Source: a virus | Virus record (IMG/VR): IMGVR_UViG_3300020026_000012 | Coordinates: 1-6,307 of that record | Direction: 5' to 3' (one strand) | DNA length: 6,307 nt | Part shown: positions 1 through 6,307 of the stretch, in pieces | Position numbering within the stretch: position 1 is the stretch's first letter | How the letters are laid out: the number at the start of each line of letters is the position of its first letter | The notes under the pieces: model-generated | The model's database searches: none | What the model saw: the letters and a program-made list of their open reading frames with translations, nothing else | Told to the model about the DNA's origin: nothing | Translations under genes and position numbers: made by a program

Positions 1-112
1 GAGGAAAGAGATTTGATTCTGTAAATCCAATGGAATGGAAGGATTTAGGTCGCACCACTTTTGGCATTTGAGTATAAAAGTCGGGTAAAGCGACAAAACT
101 ATTAACATACGA
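1..112. repeat. Terminal redundancy, left copy (identical to 6196..6307). It marks a circular genome of 6195 bp.
   Basis: Base-by-base comparison of 1..112 with 6196..6307 found no mismatch. Confidence 0.97.
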
Positions 113-850
113 CGCAACATATGGAGCTGCGAATCCTCTCGACAATGATGCATCACAACGTCCGTAAGACCAAGCCTTAGATACATTTTCACAAACAGTT
201 TTCGAGAATCGTTCGGAATTGGAAAACAATAGCAAATGCCAATGCGGGCGGAAACTGGTAGGACCGTATTCTGATACAGCGTAGTAACGTAATTTTTCAT
301 CTGAATAATAACTTCTTAAACGTTTTAAAAATAAATCAAGGTCACGATTACAAACATAAGGAATTCTATTAGGAACGTTATGCTTAATTTTCCCAAGAAT
401 AGACAATAAATCCTTAGGTTTCATAGGATAAGAAAAGCTTACCTTAGGGTCTTTGAATGTACGCTCAACAGTAGAGTTCTTTAACTTAACAGAGGCACTA
501 CGAGGAGCGCTATGAAAACTAAACAAATAAGTATTAGGGTCACCAGCGTCCAACTCATTAATGTTCGGAACACAAGGCACATCAGCAACATCATCCGTAC
601 AAGTTTCAACAATCGAAACCTCCAAAGTAGGAAGAAAGCGAGGAGCATAAGTAAGAGTAACAAAATATACATAACGGAATTGAGAAGAATAAGTAGTGAG
701 TAAATTTGTTTGAATAGCAGAACGACGAAGGACACAAGAAGGACAACAACCACAGGGAACAACAACGGACTCATGCGTATACTTATTGACAACCGTACGA
801 GGGTGCTGACAACGTGTCACTAACTTATTTTGTAATTCCTTAGTAATCAT
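1..850 (-). CDS. VP4: Replication initiation protein (Rep, VP4/A-like HUH endonuclease), N-terminal 283 codons. The ORF runs off the left window edge and continues on the circle into 6195..5351. Full gene = complement(join(5351..6195,1..850)), 564 aa.
   Basis: Hand translation from the ATG at 850..848 gives MITKELQNKLVTRCQHPRTVVNKYTHESVVVPCGCCPSCVLRR..., the Cys cluster typical of microvirus VP4 N-termini. It contains RCR motif I FVTLTY, the HUH motif RPHWHLLLF (H-W-H codons at 244..236) and a two-tyrosine motif YVASY (121..107) with the same spacing as phiX174 A protein YVAKY. There is no stop down to base 1. The frame is continuous with the 303-aa ORF of the right-hand copy (M262 = ATG at 67..65 = 6262..6260). 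The start overlaps the upstream stop as ATGA. It is absent from the ORF track only because it has no stop inside the window. Confidence 0.9.
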   Translation of the reverse strand, partial: MITKELQNKLVTRCQHPRTVVNKYTHESVVVPCGCCPSCVLRRSAIQTNLLTTYSSQFRYVYFVTLTYAPRFLPTLEVSIVETCTDDVADVPCVPNINELDAGDPNTYLFSFHSAPRSASVKLKNSTVERTFKDPKVSFSYPMKPKDLLSILGKIKHNVPNRIPYVCNRDLDLFLKRLRSYYSDEKLRYYAVSEYGPTSFRPHWHLLLFSNSERFSKTVCENVSKAWSYGRCDASLSRGFAAPYVASYVNSFVALPDFYTQMPKVVRPKSFHSIGFTESNLFP

Positions 851-1155
851 TTTCTATTAATAAAATTAAGTTCCATTTGACGAGGCTTGCGACCACGAGC
901 AAAGGAAATGTGAACAAAAGTGCGATACTTTATAAGTTGGTCAAACTTGAAAGGAGATTCTTTAATCACATAGATTAAAGAATCAACCGAAAAATCCAAA
1001 GGCTTTAAATCAATAGCATCTCCAGTCAAATGTTGAGAATTCTCAGAACCATTACATGCCTCATTTTGTTCCTTAGTACGAAAAGCTGAAGTGACAGTAA
1101 AATGAAGGTTTCGACAGAGGAGCCACTCAACAAATTTCATTAATTCAGGGTTCAT
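847..1155 (-). CDS. Peptidase M15-family (M15_3/M15A-like, zinc D-Ala-D-Ala carboxypeptidase/endolysin fold) cell-wall hydrolase, 102 aa
   Basis: The segment TVTSAFRTKEQNEACNGSENSQHLTGDAIDL matches the family signature SGYR-x4-N-x3-GG-x2-NSQH-x2-G-x-A-x-D (H42-x6-D49). A distal FVHIS (H82) sits where the family has FVHVD. The protein has no signal peptide. Its TGA stop overlaps the Rep ATG (ATGA at 850..847). Confidence 0.75.
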   Translation of the reverse strand: MNPELMKFVEWLLCRNLHFTVTSAFRTKEQNEACNGSENSQHLTGDAIDLKPLDFSVDSLIYVIKESPFKFDQLIKYRTFVHISFARGRKPRQMELNFINRK

Positions 1156-1158
1156 AGC

Positions 1159-1182
1159 TTACGATTACGATTACAATTACGA
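1159..1182. repeat. Four tandem hexamers, TTACGA TTACGA TTACAA TTACGA on the + strand (TCGTAA/TTGTAA on the gene strand)
   Basis: Read directly from the sequence. On the minus strand it reads TCG TAA TTG TAA TCG TAA TCG TAA GCT ATG. That is four TAA stops in the frame of the 29-aa ORF, immediately before the peptidase ATG, which is in the same frame. Confidence 0.95.
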
Positions 1183-1266
1183 AAATATCTGAGCAATAGA
1201 CGTAAGAAGACTAACAGCAGCTGCAATAATTGCAGACCAAATTTTAGATTTAGTATCACTTTTCAT
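1177..1266 (-). CDS. Small single-pass membrane peptide, 29 aa (MKSDTKSKIWSAIIAAAVSLLTSIAQIFS). Candidate holin-like or lysis accessory protein.
   Basis: Hand translation from the ATG at 1266..1264 to the TAA at 1179..1177. A charged N-terminus (K2,D4,K6,K8) is followed by about 20 hydrophobic residues. It sits directly upstream of the M15 peptidase and overlaps the upstream ORF stop by 11 nt (ATGAAAAGTGA). It is too short for the ORF track. T-rich strands readily give hydrophobic short ORFs, so coding status is uncertain. Confidence 0.3.
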   Translation of the reverse strand: MKSDTKSKIWSAIIAAAVSLLTSIAQIFS

Positions 1267-1429
1267 GAGAAAATGATTTAAAAGTTGAACATTGAGAAAT
1301 AATAAGAACACAATCAGGGCAGAGATGAGAAGAAACAAAATCAGAAATAGACTCGACGGGGACGAGAATAGTCTCGTTCTGATTAGGATTTACCTTAGAC
1401 TGTACAGAGCACAAATAGCAATTTTCCAT
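1256..1429 (-). CDS. Small cysteine-pair protein, 57 aa, putative zinc-ribbon (MENCYLCSVQSKVNPNQNETILVPVESISDFVSSHLCPDCVLIISQCSTFKSFSHEK). Function unknown.
   Basis: Hand translation from the ATG at 1429..1427 to the TGA at 1258..1256. The pattern is C4-x2-C7-x29-C37-x2-C40. It is the first ORF downstream of the promoter-like motif. It falls below the ORF-track length cutoff. Confidence 0.4.
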   Translation of the reverse strand: MENCYLCSVQSKVNPNQNETILVPVESISDFVSSHLCPDCVLIISQCSTFKSFSHEK

Positions 1430-1471
1430 AACACTTAAAATTTTAATTATACATTGATTTTAAACACAGAA

Positions 1472-1504
1472 CAAAGATATAAATAAAAATTTGAAGAAAG
1501 CAAA
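1472..1504 (-). promoter_or_regulatory. Bacteroidetes-type promoter candidate: -33 TTTG (1504..1501), a 21-nt spacer, then -7 TATCTTTG (1479..1472)
   Basis: The gene-strand sequence reads tgtgtaTTTGctttcttcaaatttttatttaTATCTTTGttctg. TATCTTTG is a perfect match to the Bacteroides -7 consensus TAnnTTTG, and the upstream TTTG lies at the far end of the reported spacing range. It sits in a ~17% GC spacer, about 45 nt upstream of the first ATG (1429). The AT-rich context makes chance matches plausible. Confidence 0.35.
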
Positions 1505-1545
1505 TACACACATATATTATTAACATAAATAAACAAAAGCTATAT

Positions 1546-1832
1546 GGGTGGACGGCTGGTCTGTGAGTTTGCGTTATTCAGACAAGAGGAGACTGAAAGC
1601 GATGAGGTAAATCGCTTTCCCTTCGGGCAAACTCATGTAGACTTCGTCAAATAATATTTTAGGGTTATAGCAGCGACGGCAGAGAGGAGCTCTCCGGGAA
1701 ATTGCTTACGCGTTGCGAACGTTAAGCTTAAAGGATAGCAGTACTATAGCCTTCGGCTCTGATTTCAGTCCTAACGTCCCGAAATTCAGAAGGTGTATAA
1801 CCACGCTACGCGCGGTTGCCAAAAGTTACTCC
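1546..1832. other. Hairpin-dense, GC-enriched non-coding module. It could be a structured ncRNA or an ssDNA structural element such as a complementary-strand origin or priming signal. Strand is undetermined.
   Basis: There is no credible ORF; the longest ATG ORF on the gene strand is 20 aa (1636..1574). Domain 1 is closed by a 9-bp helix, 1564-1572/1627-1635. It encloses 1577-1581/1593-1597, the perfect 9-bp hairpin 1595-1603/1611-1619 (loop GAGGTAA) and C(TTCG)G at 1621-1626. Domain 2 is closed by a 7-bp helix, 1663-1669/1796-1802. It encloses hairpins 1682-1686/1690-1694, 1704-1710/1720-1727, 1735-1738/1744-1747, 1748-1751/1755-1758 and 1758-1766/1781-1790. My hand count gives about 45-47% G+C here, against about 17% in 1441..1545. 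Confidence 0.5.
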
Positions 1833-1867
1833 AAAAAAAAACCCGGCGCGTATCACTACGAACCGGG
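1833..1867 (-). terminator. Rho-independent terminator of the structural gene block
   Basis: The gene strand reads CCCGG-tt-CGTA-GTGA-TACG-cg-CCGGG followed by T9 (1841..1833). That is a 5-bp plus 4-bp stem with a GNRA-type GUGA loop, starting 35 nt after the VP2 stop. On the + strand the hairpin is followed by AGGGAAAAAA, so it works in one direction only. Confidence 0.65.
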
Positions 1868-1902
1868 AGGGAAAAAACGAAAAGAAGCACAGAAAATTAA
1901 TA

Positions 1903-2973
1903 CTAACGATGAGGTATGAAATTACCTATAGTATTACCAATACTAACACCATAACCTATCCTTTTATCAGTATCAAAATACATATGTTTTTTCTTTTCAT
2001 TTCGAGAGCGATACCAATCCTCAATATTCTTACTACGAGCATTATCCTGAGGAAGACCTAATCTAAGCTCTTCATTATGATAAGCAGCAGAAGATTGATT
2101 GGCAGCAATATTAGCAGCAATTTGAGACTCAGCAATAGCAAAACCAACCTCATTAGAAATATTCTGACCACGTGTACGAGCAGCGGCCAAAGCTTCCTCA
2201 GCTATAGCCTTTTTAGCTTCAGCATAAGAAAGATATCCAGAAGACATACGTTGGTAATAGTCCGCGGCCTTAACATTCAAATCGAGCTGCTGTTGTTGGT
2301 CAAGATACTTATTCATAATACCTTTAGCCTCATTATCAAGAAGCATACCAGAACGCTGAGCACGCATAATAAGACCTGTCATTGCCATATTATCAACTTC
2401 TTGTTGTTCCTTGGCATAACCAAGCTGAGCACGAGCCAATCCAGTAGACCTCAAATAATTACGGGTTTCATCAGTAAGTTTTCCCCAATCAATATTGGAA
2501 AGAGTTTCCATTGCCTTAGCATCAGCAAGTTGTCTAGCACCTTGCAATTGAGATTTTTCAGATTGCATCAACTCGTATTGGAAAATGTTACCAATGGAAG
2601 AACTAATACCGGAATAATCAGCCTGAAAAGGTTGCATGACAGCAGAACCAGAAGAAGAAGCAGAAGCACCGGTACCAGCTGATTGAGCAATACCAGATGA
2701 ACCTCCGTTCATCATCAAATAAGGATTCAAACCAGCTTCCTCGAGACGTTGGCGTTGAGCAGAAGCAGTGTTATAAGCATTCTCCTTATTCCACATATTC
2801 TCCTGCCAATTACGCTGCTGTATCGCCATACGTTCGTTAAACTGGTTATTCATCTGATTAATCTTATAATTCATCTGATTGGTCTCCCGGACATTCTGCC
2901 TATTCTGTGAATTCTGAATAGAAGAAGAACCAACACCAAGAAGACCACCAGCGATTGAACTCAAAAGACCCAT
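1903..2973 (-). CDS. VP2: Minor capsid / DNA pilot protein VP2, 356 aa
   Basis: The protein has a Gly/Ser-rich N-terminus, a Q/N-rich coiled region and the conserved block ...NTASAQRQRLEEAGLNPYLMM..., the AGLNP motif typical of gokusho/alpavirus VP2. It sits downstream of the capsid and scaffold genes. Its start overlaps the upstream stop (TAATG at 2975..2971). Confidence 0.85.
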   Translation of the reverse strand: MGLLSSIAGGLLGVGSSSIQNSQNRQNVRETNQMNYKINQMNNQFNERMAIQQRNWQENMWNKENAYNTASAQRQRLEEAGLNPYLMMNGGSSGIAQSAGTGASASSSGSAVMQPFQADYSGISSSIGNIFQYELMQSEKSQLQGARQLADAKAMETLSNIDWGKLTDETRNYLRSTGLARAQLGYAKEQQEVDNMAMTGLIMRAQRSGMLLDNEAKGIMNKYLDQQQQLDLNVKAADYYQRMSSGYLSYAEAKKAIAEEALAAARTRGQNISNEVGFAIAESQIAANIAANQSSAAYHNEELRLGLPQDNARSKNIEDWYRSRNEKKKHMYFDTDKRIGYGVSIGNTIGNFIPHR

Positions 2974-3455
2974 TACTCAGAGGATGCAGGTTCAGCGGAA
3001 GCAGCAACCGCCTTTTCTGTCTCTTGTTTAGCATTTTCAGCATCAATCAATGCTTGAGCTTGAGACTCAAGATGCTCAGCATAAGCAGACAACTCCTTAG
3101 ACCAAGCAATAATTTCAGAAGGAGCCTGAATATGCCGAGAACGTACCGTTGCCAAAAGATCATCATCAGACATCGTATCCATTATTTGTTGAATTTGAGA
3201 AGAAGACTGGTTGCTTTGTCCAAAATTAGAAGCAACAGCAAGACCAGCACGGGAAGCCAAATCCTTAGTATGAAGGATTAACCGAATATCAGAAGTATAA
3301 CGCACCGGGCAAAATTCTTCAGTATCATAAATTTCTACACGAAGTTGCTCGGTAGAATCAAACTGAGGAGCAACAGCGAAAGCGTCAGGCTCAACATTAG
3401 GAATAAGACCGGAACCTTGTTCCAGACATTCCAAAGAATTAAATTTTCCTATCAT
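2973..3455 (-). CDS. Acidic 160-aa protein in the position of the internal scaffolding protein (VP3-like). The function is assigned by position and composition only.
   Basis: It is a clean ORF between VP1 and VP2 and is translationally coupled to VP2. It has an acidic, Ala/Glu/Gln-rich predicted helical C-terminus (ELSAYAEHLESQAQALIDAENAKQETEKAVAASAE). I do not see the gokushovirus VP3 signature, so the name is tentative. Confidence 0.55.
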   Translation of the reverse strand: MIGKFNSLECLEQGSGLIPNVEPDAFAVAPQFDSTEQLRVEIYDTEEFCPVRYTSDIRLILHTKDLASRAGLAVASNFGQSNQSSSQIQQIMDTMSDDDLLATVRSRHIQAPSEIIAWSKELSAYAEHLESQAQALIDAENAKQETEKAVAASAEPASSE

Positions 3456-3469
3456 AATCGAAACAAAAA

Positions 3470-5317
3470 CTAATAAGGCACACCATCACGAGACAAATTA
3501 CGGGCAACGTGGCAACCGATATAAGAATTAATAAGAAGTTGGTCAGTATCCCAAGTAGAATCCGCAGCAACTCCAAATATAGGATCAAGAACGGAAGGAT
3601 TAACCTTAAAGAACTTGTAATTCAAAACAACCTTATTCTGTTTGTTAACATCGCCTTCATTATAACCAAATCCAAACCATCCAGAAAGGAGAGATTCGGT
3701 AACAGGAGAAACCCAAGATTTAAGAGTGGTAGTAAAGGCACCGTTAATAACGTCAAGCTTTGTCTTCCAATTGAAATAACGAGGATTATAACCTGCATTG
3801 AACAGATTAACAATAGAAGCTCTTGGAGAATTAAAAATCTGTGTCATAGGAAGGACTTCCATGCCAATATTATCAAACTCCGGAATAGGGAGGGATTCAG
3901 CATCAGTTACAAGGAGCTGGCCATCCTGACCAGTAATTGTGTAATCAAGCAAAGGAACAGCATGATAAATACACATAATGACACAATGCTCGTTAGTAGT
4001 GTAAGTGAAAGAACCGTTACCAGCACCAACACCTTTACCAGCAATAACAGCAGTATCACTCTCAGCGGCAAGATTATTATTTACAACCTCACTGATATCA
4101 AGATTACGAGAAATTCCACCAATATAAGTACACAGATTGGAAAGAGCTTGAGGCAAGCTTACACCAAAATGTTTACGTATCTGTTCACGGTAATCGCTAT
4201 CTCCAGATTGGCTAATCTCTTTCCAACGTTGAAGAGCTTCAACTTGACGAAGAGCAAGAACTGTAAACTGAGACTTCAAAGAAGACAAATCAACACGAAG
4301 AGTAGAAGAAACAGGTATTGAATTAGTCGAAGAAGCATTTAAAGCAAAGAGAGGAACAGGAGAAGCATTAGAAGTAACAGCAGAAGCTATACCTAACTTA
4401 CTATTAGAGTTCCCAAGTCCTAAAACAACATCAGGCTTACCGGAATTGTCAATATCAAGAACAGCAACATCACCAAATTGAGAGTTCGGAAGAACACCCA
4501 TCAACATGTCTTTGTTCCAGTTACAATATTTGAGGTCAAACATTGTGTCAGACTTCCAATAAGCAGAATCAACAGAAGGCATAGAAGAAACCAAGTAAGG
4601 ATCAACACCTGAAAAATAGTCCACATTATAGGAAGAAGGATTTGCATTTTCCCATTGAGACCAACGGAAAAAATCTTGATAAATCTTCTGATAAGCAAGA
4701 AGAGGGAAAACATTCACAACATTATTCTGAATATAGGCCTGAGTATAAGGAGAAGAAGCTTCATACTTTAAAGTTGTAGACCACCAACGATTGCCAGAAG
4801 AAGGAGTATTAAGTATAACATTTCCATAACCAAGATAACTTAAAAGCTTATAGCCTAAATCACCACGATTAAAACCAAACATATTATTTAAAGAAGAAGA
4901 ATTGCCAGGATTGACACTATTTCCATTAAGCCTACTCAAAGCTTGATAAAAAAAGTTGAGAGGTAAAGAAGGTAAATAAGCACCAAGAGACAAATTCTGA
5001 GTAAAAGACAAAGCCTGAATCTGATTGATATCCTGCATTTGAGTTAACACAGTAGGAGCAGACTTCCAGAGAAGACGCAAGGGTACAGCATAAAAATCAA
5101 AGTACTCACGCAACCGGGTATAAGCAGAAGTTTCAACAGGCTGAGTACGGGTAAAATACTCAACGTCAAACTTATACTTATCTCCGGGCATAGAAATATC
5201 CCAGTACACAGGGAGAAGCTCTCCAGCTTTCGCAGTGAAAGCATTTTTACGACCAATATCAAAACCAGAACGGTGAGGCCTATTTTGAAGATTGGACATT
5301 CCAGTATAAGAAGCCAT
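3470..5317 (-). CDS. VP1: Major capsid protein VP1 (Microviridae F-protein family), 615 aa
   Basis: The N-terminal block HRSGFDIGRKNAFTAKAGELLPVYWDISMPGDKYKFDVEYFTRTQPVETSAYTRLREYFDFYAVPLRLLW and the later LRQVEALQRWKE...IRKHFGV...YIGG are hallmark conserved segments of microvirus major capsid proteins. It is the longest ORF in the window. Confidence 0.95.
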   Translation of the reverse strand: MASYTGMSNLQNRPHRSGFDIGRKNAFTAKAGELLPVYWDISMPGDKYKFDVEYFTRTQPVETSAYTRLREYFDFYAVPLRLLWKSAPTVLTQMQDINQIQALSFTQNLSLGAYLPSLPLNFFYQALSRLNGNSVNPGNSSSLNNMFGFNRGDLGYKLLSYLGYGNVILNTPSSGNRWWSTTLKYEASSPYTQAYIQNNVVNVFPLLAYQKIYQDFFRWSQWENANPSSYNVDYFSGVDPYLVSSMPSVDSAYWKSDTMFDLKYCNWNKDMLMGVLPNSQFGDVAVLDIDNSGKPDVVLGLGNSNSKLGIASAVTSNASPVPLFALNASSTNSIPVSSTLRVDLSSLKSQFTVLALRQVEALQRWKEISQSGDSDYREQIRKHFGVSLPQALSNLCTYIGGISRNLDISEVVNNNLAAESDTAVIAGKGVGAGNGSFTYTTNEHCVIMCIYHAVPLLDYTITGQDGQLLVTDAESLPIPEFDNIGMEVLPMTQIFNSPRASIVNLFNAGYNPRYFNWKTKLDVINGAFTTTLKSWVSPVTESLLSGWFGFGYNEGDVNKQNKVVLNYKFFKVNPSVLDPIFGVAADSTWDTDQLLINSYIGCHVARNLSRDGVPY

Positions 5318-5350
5318 AAAAACAAAATTTAAAAATTAAACATATACATA

Positions 5351-6307
5351 TTATTCTTGTGAAAGAATACCTAACGAATCATTAACCTCTTTGTGTTTAA
5401 CCTTATCCCGACATTTCTTCAATGCCGCAGCGATCAAACGACGAACAAGAGGTAATTCATTATAAGGAACTTCTTCATCAAGAACAGATTTATCATAACG
5501 GAAAGAATAGTTACGAAGTTCAAAATCAACCAAGTCTTTATCATTGGCATCCTCCAAAGTCTGATAAAAATCAACAAGACGATTATACTCGTAACGATTC
5601 CAAAAATCAACTATTTTAACGGAAAGAATATGCAAAAAGTCTATTTGTCCAGGGAATGTTCCTCCGAAAAAGCAGCAGGGAAAGAAGTATCTCGGGTCTC
5701 CGTCTGATGAATAGACTCGAATAAATTTCTTAATTCCAAGGAAAAAGCGGTAGACACGGGAGATACGATGAACAGGTTCCAAATCAACACCATCGTACAA
5801 ACGACATTCAGACAAAATAAGAATATCACTATGCGGTAGAGCCGCTTTAGGTGAAAGAATATTTCTTTCATCATTTCTTTTTTCATAATTATCGACATAA
5901 TCTAAATATTGTCTACAAAAAGATAAAAGGGATTGTTTAGAATCAGCACTAAAAGGACTACAATCTAAATCAGCGCATCCGCCACGAACGACTCTCCCGG
6001 GCGCTGTGAACGCAGCAGATAATAACTGGTAAACACGCGATGGAAATTTACGAATAGGCTCTGAAAATCTCGGGAATAATCGAAGGAGATACGGCCAAGA
6101 AGGTTTAATTGTGAAAAAATATCCATTGCGCTCAACGCGGACTCCATTAAGGCACTCATCGGCAACCTTATCAACTTCGGCAATTTGTACCTTTCGAGGA
6201 AAGAGATTTGATTCTGTAAATCCAATGGAATGGAAGGATTTAGGTCGCACCACTTTTGGCATTTGAGTATAAAAGTCGGGTAAAGCGACAAAACTATTAA
6301 CATACGA
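5351..6307 (-). CDS. VP4: Rep/VP4, C-terminal 318 codons plus stop. The ORF is open to the right window edge, and 6196..6307 duplicates 1..112.
   Basis: The reading frame is open from 6307 down to the TAA at 5353..5351. The 303-aa ORF in the track (ATG at 6262) is only the stretch from an internal Met (M262) of the 564-aa Rep. I recognise no motifs in this half. Confidence 0.85.
   Translation of the reverse strand, partial: SYVNSFVALPDFYTQMPKVVRPKSFHSIGFTESNLFPRKVQIAEVDKVADECLNGVRVERNGYFFTIKPSWPYLLRLFPRFSEPIRKFPSRVYQLLSAAFTAPGRVVRGGCADLDCSPFSADSKQSLLSFCRQYLDYVDNYEKRNDERNILSPKAALPHSDILILSECRLYDGVDLEPVHRISRVYRFFLGIKKFIRVYSSDGDPRYFFPCCFFGGTFPGQIDFLHILSVKIVDFWNRYEYNRLVDFYQTLEDANDKDLVDFELRNYSFRYDKSVLDEEVPYNELPLVRRLIAAALKKCRDKVKHKEVNDSLGILSQE
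6196..6307. repeat. Terminal redundancy, right copy (identical to 1..112)
   Basis: Same comparison as for the left copy. The repeat lies inside the Rep coding sequence, so it comes from linearising a circle and is not a biological repeat. Confidence 0.97.

Follow-up and report, generated by a model that had tools for sequence, protein, structure and literature searches.

A conserved single-helix micro-protein gene directly upstream of a leaderless M15 peptidase gene in an Alpavirinae-type microvirus: a candidate minimal lysis cassette

The stretch of viral DNA analysed here (IMG/VR record IMGVR_UViG_3300020026_000012, positions 1 to 6,307; 6,307 nucleotides (nt) in all, called the window below) is the whole circular genome of an Alpavirinae-type microvirus, whose genes lie on the minus strand. 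It carries an open reading frame (ORF) of only 29 amino acids (aa), the small ORF, immediately upstream of a gene for a 102-aa peptidase of the M15 family. The pattern of substitution identifies the small ORF as a gene under strong selection, and we see about an even chance that the two genes form a minimal two-component lysis cassette, consisting of a holin-like peptide and an endolysin, of a microvirus that infects Bacteroidales. The features concerned are as follows.

1266..1177, minus strand: 29-aa small ORF, a single-helix membrane micro-protein gene, smalltalk/DUF6486-like; candidate holin-like or lysis peptide.
1156..1176, minus strand: junction, a (TAATYG)3 expansion between the small ORF stop (1177-1179) and the peptidase ATG.
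1155..847, minus strand: 102-aa peptidase, a leaderless and N-terminally minimal M15_3 (LAS-fold) protein; putative endolysin.

An earlier note, made from the letters of the window alone, had likened this layout to the cassette of a membrane protein and a muralytic enzyme, and a selected single-helix gene does indeed adjoin a leaderless peptidase gene.

For comparison, 143 related loci were gathered from GenBank phage records and IMG/VR. A single-sequence query with the replication initiator (Rep) gave no match in IMG/VR, and an alignment was needed. Clade 1 is defined as the 68 genomes whose peptidase is 68-94% identical to that of the window, and clade 2 as the 45 genomes in which it is about 52-57% identical. 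Ratios of non-synonymous to synonymous substitution (dN/dS) are pooled pairwise Nei-Gojobori values. The peptide encoded by the small ORF (1266..1177, 29 aa) is MKSDTKSKIWSAIIAAAVSLLTSIAQIFS. Conservation in relatives, which the note had proposed to check, was found in 67 of the 68 clade-1 genomes, where the ORF is intact; 36 clade-1 genomes encode one identical peptide, MKSETKSKIWSAIIAAAVSLLTSIAQIFS. The expected bias towards synonymous change is equally clear, since dN/dS in clade 1 is 0.09, as against 1.76 and 1.97 in the alternative frames, and the variable sites number 11, 4 and 21 of 25 at codon positions 1, 2 and 3, respectively. The clade-2 homologue has 27 aa (MKSNNIWKIVIGAVSAALGYILNAIGL), and its dN/dS is 0.084 at a synonymous divergence (dS) of 0.64. 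The peptidase (dN/dS 0.20) and a 57-aa ORF that precedes the small ORF (0.19) are both less constrained than the small ORF. The sole exception in clade 1 (L034, about 3200-3330) has a GAA to TAA change at codon 4 and a 7-nt duplication, and is either a defective genome or a sequencing error.

Because dN/dS is so low in two separate clades while the alternative frames exceed 1, the 29-aa ORF is, on the evidence of its substitutions, a real protein-coding gene under strong purifying selection. It is very short, it is unannotated in the records examined and it is represented in only 25 protein clusters, all of which would suit a chance, unexpressed open frame in AT-rich DNA. With abundant synonymous change in both clades, and with the ATG and the frame kept in about 115 genomes over a range of 50-94% peptidase identity, we consider that explanation extremely unlikely. 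A separate observation is that dS of the small ORF is 0.29 and that the flanking genes, at 0.65-0.78, have values 2-3 times higher; this may point to a further constraint on the RNA or DNA, or to recent exchange of the segment.

The small ORF is annotated in none of the GenBank records examined. In Dulem virus 238 (L009, PP511332) the CDS called 'peptidase' (3985-4359) is extended upstream over an unannotated 28-aa small ORF in another frame, and its start appears to have been called 21 codons too far upstream. Among 5.8 billion protein clusters, the peptidase is covered by 1618 and the small ORF by 25; these 25 are all unnamed, and most have spurious N-terminal extensions. Two other versions of the frame were considered and dropped. 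A GTG-initiated hydrophobic frame (window 1259..1152) has a dN/dS of 1.76, and in a TTG-initiated version of 53 aa the upstream part is an unconserved alternative frame of the 57-aa ORF.

The junction between the two genes, which the note had singled out as unusual, reads TAA TTG TAA TCG TAA TCG TAA GCT ATG from the small ORF stop to the peptidase ATG. Read from that stop (1179..1156), there are four in-frame TAA codons, three of them within 1156-1176, and the spacer of 21 nt arises from an 18-nt hexamer expansion. The junction is therefore genuinely unusual in the window, but it is not conserved, and the expansion is peculiar to the window and a few near relatives. In 57 of the 68 clade-1 genomes the arrangement is TAA/TAG-NNN-ATG, with a spacer of 3 nt; near relatives with other small duplications have spacers of 9, 12, 13, 15, 16, 32 or 56 nt (variable duplications are seen in L011, L012, L013, L032, L033 and L059), and in clade 2 and in the related genome mar62 the small ORF stop and the peptidase ATG overlap as ATGA. 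Since most genomes have the short spacer and only a few near relatives vary, the junction is a slippage-prone spot and no conserved device.

The same comparisons bear on the suggestion that the small ORF is a detached signal peptide or anchor, which is fused to the peptidase by readthrough or frameshifting to give an exported endolysin, or one of the signal-anchor-release (SAR) type. The peptide does have a signal-peptide-like n/h/c layout, and in the 57 clade-1 genomes with the short spacer it is in frame with the peptidase, with one stop and one sense codon between them. Ordinary translational coupling would, however, produce just such a 3-nt spacer. Four in-frame stops are present in the window, several relatives have out-of-frame spacers (13, 16, 32 or 56 nt), the ATGA overlap of clade 2 and mar62 puts the two genes in different frames with no slippery site, and the small ORF survives in genomes with no peptidase at all. 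Fusion was ruled out as a candidate on the diversity of the junctions and the four in-frame stops, and we regard it as very unlikely; it and the chance ORF are both essentially excluded. Nor does the helix form part of the enzyme, as it would in a SAR endolysin, given that the ORFs are split by one to four stops or lie in different frames in relatives.

The peptide has the charged N-terminus and the one hydrophobic helix that the note had described, with a net charge of +2 over the first nine residues and a hydrophobic stretch from I9 to F28. Its Kyte-Doolittle value is 2.11 over 17 residues, the helix is only marginally hydrophobic on a translocon-type scale, and about 45% of it is Gly, Ala, Ser or Thr. 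The peptide ends one residue past the helix (...AQIFS), and its charge is N-terminal. Because the N-terminus is basic, the topology should be N-in/C-out by the positive-inside rule. Small residues recur at i, i+4 (S11-A15-S19-S23 in clade 1; G12-A16 and S15-G19 in clade 2), a spacing that would be typical of self-associating helices. Like holins in general, this is a small phage protein with at least one transmembrane (TM) helix, and its gene adjoins a putative endolysin gene (in about 114 of 116 genomes). In sequence, described holin families give weak matches and no significant one, and the kinship is instead to the smalltalk/DUF6486 family of Bacteroidales; 'holin' remains a label that we infer from anatomy. 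Features of an E-type lysis protein were not seen: there is no Pfam or PHROG match to one, no Pro in the helix, and an overlap of only 11 nt with the neighbouring gene.

The 102-aa protein (1155..847; MNPELMKFVEWLLCRNLHFTVTSAFRTKEQNEACNGSENSQHLTGDAIDLKPLDFSVDSLIYVIKESPFKFDQLIKYRTFVHISFARGRKPRQMELNFINRK) is identified from its sequence and predicted structure as a zinc peptidase of the M15 family (PF08291) with the LAS fold and with its metal-binding triad kept. All elements of the M15 signature claimed for it are present (S23-A-F-R26, N31, G36, N39-S-Q-H42, D49 and F80-V-H82-I-S84). The Pfam search suggested in the note gave PF08291 (Peptidase_M15_3) at 44.9 bits, compared to a gathering cut-off of 23.2 (E 1.4e-11), with a match that spans profile positions 42-108 only, and the PHROG search gave phrog_894, endolysin (4.9e-17). 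A HMMER search of 1.84 billion representatives found 692 relatives. Since typical members have 130-150 aa, with the match beginning near residue 50, the microviral protein is an N-terminally truncated, minimal version of the family. In an alignment of 101 diverse homologues, residues S23, R26, N31, S40, H42, D49 and H82 are invariant. The note had been concerned that H-I-S in place of H-V-D might alter activity. This concern does not apply, because H-x-S/G is the norm of the subfamily throughout the alignment, including its bacterial and dsDNA-phage members of 130-150 aa, and because H82 is invariant.

AlphaFold2, supplied with the alignment of 101 members, gave a confident prediction (predicted local distance difference test, pLDDT, 96.9; predicted template modelling score, pTM, 0.88). 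The model has the LAS or Hedgehog/DD-peptidase fold. The best match in the PDB using Foldseek is 1lbu, a Streptomyces zinc DD-peptidase (E 2.8e-4, TM-score 0.64), followed by LdcB, Hedgehog N-domains, LysB4, VanY, LysECD7 and Ply500, so that the top matches are LAS-fold proteins only; viral models yielded M15A peptidases, some of them from other microviruses. H42 and D49 align to H154 and D161 of 1lbu and to H66 and D73 of 2mxz (the T5 endolysin), within a shared S-x-H-x(6)-D motif. We take these residues of 1lbu and 2mxz to be metal ligands. The protein was said to have no signal peptide, and in the model its N-terminus is indeed an amphipathic helix within the fold. Homologues in tailed phages are annotated as endolysins, one of them from a Bacteroides phage. 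A Bacteroidales host is proposed because the nearest cellular homologues of the peptidase (at most 43% identical) come almost exclusively from Bacteroidota. A search of 185,579 representative genomes turned up no prophage of this clade, the best peptidase match being 43%.

The relation of the small peptide to a host family came to light through Dipodfec virus OQ686870 (L092), a related microvirus that lacks the peptidase and has a 30-aa ORF in the same slot. Its peptide passes the NCBIfam model NF033879, 'smalltalk protein' (25.0 bits against a cut-off of 24.7, E 1.2e-5), and falls just short of Pfam DUF6486 (PF20096; 21.7 against 22.7). Profiles were then compared using hhalign, with 44 distinct microviral peptides on one side, from which L092, L098 and L099 were left out to avoid circularity, and on the other the smalltalk domain of 120 Bacteroidales proteins and two locus ORFs (75 distinct domain sequences). 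The score was 32.7 over 24 columns (probability 95.3%, P 2e-8). Controls gave 12.8 for a reversed template, a mean of 8.5 (sd 2.1, maximum 14.2) for 100 column permutations, and a maximum of 22.0 for 100 permutations of the hydrophobic core only. Clade 2 alone scored 29.7 (93%). The clade-1 peptide is visibly close to that of L098/L099 (KNKIWSAVISAIVSLLTSLG and KSKIWSAIIAAAVSLLTSIA, respectively), and the latter is the best microviral match of an HMM made from host smalltalk sequences only. With a domain-only host smalltalk HMM, the small ORF is top of about 185 six-frame segments in 106 of 120 genomes, which represent only about six independent lineages. We conclude from these profile comparisons that the small peptide family is related to smalltalk/DUF6486.

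In five independent Bacteroidales loci, an Amidase_2-like gene comes directly after a long-form DUF6486 gene (68-79 aa), and in most of them an M15_3 gene and a Fn3_assoc/CHB_HEX gene lie 1-2 kb upstream of DUF6486. The order is thus M15_3, Fn3_assoc/CHB_HEX, an occasional PDDEXK_3 insert, DUF6486/smalltalk and then Amidase_2-like (L170, 6839-9187; L171, 6830-9447; L214-L216). The Amidase_2-like protein is sometimes truncated to 99 aa, and no obvious signal sequence was found in the host-locus hydrolases inspected. The presence of host smalltalk beside leaderless hydrolase genes is suggestive, in that it would fit the logic of a membrane gate with an enzyme.

The host loci also bear on the suggestion that there is no lysis pair at all. 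Here the micro-protein would have some other membrane role (superinfection exclusion, anchoring of replication or assembly, or host signalling by mimicry of the host's smalltalk), and the peptidase would serve in entry or wall remodelling. Short-form smalltalk (33 aa) sits after DUF4248 and HU-like DNA-binding genes, with no obvious prophage lysis module; M15A domains occur also in virion-associated cell-puncturing proteins of tailed phages; and the small ORF abuts the Rep gene in the genomes that have no peptidase. On the other side, every long-form smalltalk host locus has a peptidoglycan-hydrolase-like gene directly downstream, the phage peptidase has no feature of capsid association, and the phage has no other lysis candidate. 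We know of no muralytic virion protein in a microvirus. On balance this explanation seems to us decidedly unlikely.

Co-occurrence of the two genes was scored in 144 genomes.

Peptidase and small ORF both present: 113/144.
Peptidase present, small ORF not scored: 3/144.
Peptidase absent, small ORF present: 4/144.
Both absent: 24/144.

The small ORF is thus directly upstream in 113 of 116 peptidase-positive genomes at the scoring threshold. A 114th (L111) has a divergent copy, and the other two are L034, where it is disrupted, and mar63, which truly lacks it. On a neighbour-joining tree of Rep, L110 and L121 are nested in clade 2, and they have therefore lost the peptidase secondarily. The small ORF is intact in L110, while the L121 copy has no start codon and has Gly-to-Asp changes; this loss, with one copy degenerate and the other intact, is counted in favour of a dependence of the small ORF on the peptidase. 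L098 and L099 belong to an outgroup whose other members carry neither gene, and their small ORFs differ at seven synonymous and two non-synonymous codons. On this distribution, the small ORF is the older or the more mobile of the two genes within the group, and its function cannot depend strictly on the viral enzyme. The pairing proposed in the note therefore stands in part. There is a conserved gene immediately upstream of the enzyme, but it is no dedicated partner that arrived with it, and the two are not obligate partners because each occurs without the other.

Three further observations concern relatives. In L091 (1865-2062, minus strand) and L138 (an ORF ending at 611) both genes are absent, and there is instead an ORF of 65-69 aa with a small-ORF-like N-terminus (K..QW..I), a TM helix, a lipobox-like Cys and a tail rich in Ser, Thr and Asn, which may be an alternative lysis or membrane protein of lipoprotein type. 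In L147 (bajarodmic virus 388, 3597-4133) the annotated M15 peptidase has a 33-aa N-terminal extension that includes a hydrophobic stretch, VGIIIITNLLILDF; either a signal anchor has been fused to the enzyme, which would make it a microvirus endolysin of SAR-like type, or the start has been called wrongly. The L099 record (IMGVR_UViG_3300022758_000021, 9627 nt) holds about 1.5 tandem copies of a microvirus genome in which the duplicated capsid, scaffold and pilot genes have diverged; either two strains were joined in a chimeric assembly or the record is a concatemer.

In the main rival to the cassette, the small peptide would bring about lysis by itself, as a 'protein antibiotic' of the kind of phiX174 E or the ssRNA-phage lysis peptides of 35-37 aa that blocks a membrane step in the synthesis or export of murein precursors, with the peptidase as an accessory that speeds or completes breakdown of the wall. 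This rival is favoured by the intact small ORFs of L092, L098, L099 and L110, which have no peptidase or other recognisable lysin, and by the wider spread of the small ORF than of the peptidase on the Rep tree. A further point in its favour is that phiX174 E needs only its N-terminal TM segment for lysis, and that the lysis proteins of ssRNA phages may have about 35 aa. However, the marginally hydrophobic helix, rich in small residues, is unlike the strongly hydrophobic, Pro-containing helix of E, and the peptide has no sequence similarity to E or to any lysis family listed in Pfam or PHROG. Homologues in the host are hard to square with an inhibitor of an essential enzyme unless they are tightly controlled, and a gate with an enzyme would be expected to show the close coupling to a leaderless hydrolase that is seen here. 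We think the autonomous peptide unlikely, if not very much so.

In the cassette as we propose it, the small peptide would insert N-in/C-out in the cytoplasmic membrane and oligomerise via its small-residue face. Late in infection it would permeabilise or depolarise the membrane in the manner of a holin or pinholin, upon which the cytoplasmic peptidase would gain access to murein and cut peptide stems, and the cell would burst. In relatives that lack the peptidase, the small peptide may act alone or may release leaderless hydrolases of the host itself.

Several points weigh against this proposal. The cassette as a whole is a proposal from sequence and modelling, and we hold it to be evenly balanced. 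As regards the peptide, the hydrophilic, highly charged C-terminal domain of holins is absent, and it showed no significant match to described holin families in Pfam or PHROG; the best weak matches were to phrog_443 for the window peptide (E 0.08), and to Phage_r1t_holin (E 0.014) and LydA holin (E 0.033) for relatives. The window peptide had no Pfam match of any kind. At 27-32 aa the peptides are shorter than any holin known to us. As regards the host family, neither the window peptide nor the clade-2 consensus matched smalltalk or DUF6486, even with E allowed to reach 10, and clade 1 alone scored 22.1 (76%) using hhalign, which is no better than the core-permuted maximum. We found no paper on the function of smalltalk/DUF6486, and the parallel with host loci is suggestive only. 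As regards the pairing, four genomes have the small ORF only, mar63 has an M15 peptidase only, and other microvirus lineages with a full-length M15 (L144-L149) have no consistent adjacent TM mini-ORF. Finally, a component to disrupt the outer membrane of a diderm host (a spanin or equivalent) was not found.

A wider proposal can be made with less assurance, and we think it doubtful though not far-fetched. Smalltalk/DUF6486 would be an unrecognised family of minimal holin-like gates (with a core of 27-33 aa) for leaderless hydrolases, common to Bacteroidales chromosomes and microviruses, and the viral copy would be the missing lysis effector of Alpavirinae-type phages, working with the phage M15 peptidase or unleashing the smalltalk-linked hydrolases of the host.

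The remaining features of the genome agree with this type of virus. Bases 1-112 are identical to 6196-6307, an exact terminal redundancy of 112 nt that is an assembly overlap of the circular genome, so that the true genome is 6195 nt within the 6307-nt window, and the Rep ORF of 564 aa is uninterrupted only once the redundancy is trimmed. In the trimmed gene order, the features other than those listed at the start are as follows.

First in order, minus strand: major capsid protein, 615 aa (Pfam Phage_F, phrog_514).
After the capsid gene, minus strand: scaffold protein, 160 aa.
After the scaffold gene, minus strand: pilot protein, 356 aa.
1430-1902: non-coding, about 470 nt, between the pilot gene and the 57-aa ORF, without a conserved ORF.
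1256..1429, minus strand: 57-aa ORF, whose last codons overlap the start of the small ORF (11 nt).
1..850 and on across the circular junction to 5351, minus strand: Rep (replication initiator), 564 aa, ATG at 850..848, annotated as Rep in relatives.

The Rep ATG and the peptidase stop overlap as ATGA. Whole-genome blastn showed about 80% identity, and a shared gene order, to eight microviruses in GenBank that come from the faeces of lemurs and rodents, including Dulem virus 236, Dulem virus 257, bajarodmic virus 1134 and bajarodmic virus 410. The microvirus context assumed in the note is thus borne out by the capsid match, by the presence of a pilot protein and Rep, and by these relatives; the great length of its capsid and Rep proteins and the arrangement of its genes mark the genome as one of the Alpavirinae-type, Bacteroidales-associated microviruses. 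The 57-aa ORF lies ahead of the small ORF in every relative, with or without a peptidase (clade 2, mar62/63, L092 and L098 have homologues), and it matched no Pfam or PHROG family in profile searches. A CxxC...CxxC 'zinc finger' in the window copy was dropped, as the pattern is not kept in relatives. Scans of 1430-1902 and the surroundings of the locus for Rfam families, repeats, sigma-70 promoters and terminators gave nothing above background, Bacteroides-type promoters being outside the scan; this region presumably harbours the origin and a Bacteroides-type promoter.

Neither the enzyme nor the endolysin role proposed for it is new, and for the enzyme the note had suspected as much. M15_3 peptidases have been reported in microviruses since 2012, in six Alpavirinae and five Gokushovirinae, with an endolysin role and horizontal transfer from Bacteroidetes proposed, and five of these 11 genes adjoin an 'unknown' ORF (Roux et al., 2012; PMC3394797). 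Microvirus peptidases have since been classed as 'lysis-associated accessory genes' (Kirchberger et al., 2022; PMC9239249), GenBank relatives already annotate the enzyme as 'peptidase', and in a 2025 census protein E is still the sole dedicated lysis protein assigned in the microvirus class. The genes described earlier belong to the same PF08291 family and occupy the same slot between the pilot gene and Rep, and neither paper (PMC3394797, PMC9239249) describes a membrane partner. The window enzyme, at 102 aa, is short of some 35-50 N-terminal residues compared to typical M15_3 members. It has the same fold and S-x-H-x(6)-D...H site as the characterised LAS lysins (the T5 L-alanyl-D-glutamate peptidase 2mxz, Ply500 2vo9, LysB4 6akv, LysECD7 8q2g and the S. 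albus DD-peptidase 1lbu), to which it is only 15-29% identical and all of which are longer. Where these lysins have their D/E-x-x-H position the window enzyme has Thr, so that no residue can be assigned to it as the catalytic base.

In tailed dsDNA phages, the holin-endolysin cassettes (lambda S/R; pinholin S21-68 and its SAR endolysin; class III holins with a single TM domain, for example T4 T) likewise have a small membrane-protein gene immediately upstream, translationally coupled to an enzyme with no secretion signal, and oligomerising holin helices are rich in small residues, as is the helix here. They differ in that the present peptides have 27-32 aa, one helix and no charged C-terminal domain, in an ssDNA genome of 6.2 kb, with no significant similarity to holin families and no spanin found, and in that the peptide also occurs without the enzyme. 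Single-gene lysis peptides include the 37-aa LysM and the 35-aa AP205 lysis protein. The small peptide resembles phiX174 E and the ssRNA-phage lysis peptides in being a tiny single-helix membrane peptide of a tiny genome, possibly sufficient alone in the peptidase-less relatives. It differs from them in having no sequence similarity, a weakly hydrophobic helix, no overprinting beyond 11 nt, usually a hydrolase as partner, and homologues in the host. With smalltalk (NF033879/PF20096) it shares a length of about 29-31 residues and the pattern K-x-(I/V)-W-K-x-I-I, followed by a small-residue helix and then L-G; unlike the viral peptide, host long-form smalltalk has a Lys-rich N-terminal extension of 40 aa and a C-terminal Cys. 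The selected but unannotated micro-protein gene, its relation to smalltalk/DUF6486 and the parallel host neighbourhood are not described in the literature that was searched.

For lysis by microviruses outside the phiX174 group, surveys name nothing but accessory genes called 'peptidase'. Without help, an enzyme that has no leader cannot get to the wall, and a conserved, selected and co-transcribed micro-protein immediately upstream is the obvious missing piece. Standard annotation thus misses a strongly selected gene of abundant gut phages. With two small genes in hand, lysis by these microviruses becomes directly testable, and an uncharacterised micro-protein family of Bacteroides, Prevotella and related genomes acquires its first functional hypothesis. 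If the wider proposal is true, lysis in Alpavirinae-type phages would follow the logic of holin and endolysin, and not the protein-antibiotic logic of phiX174.

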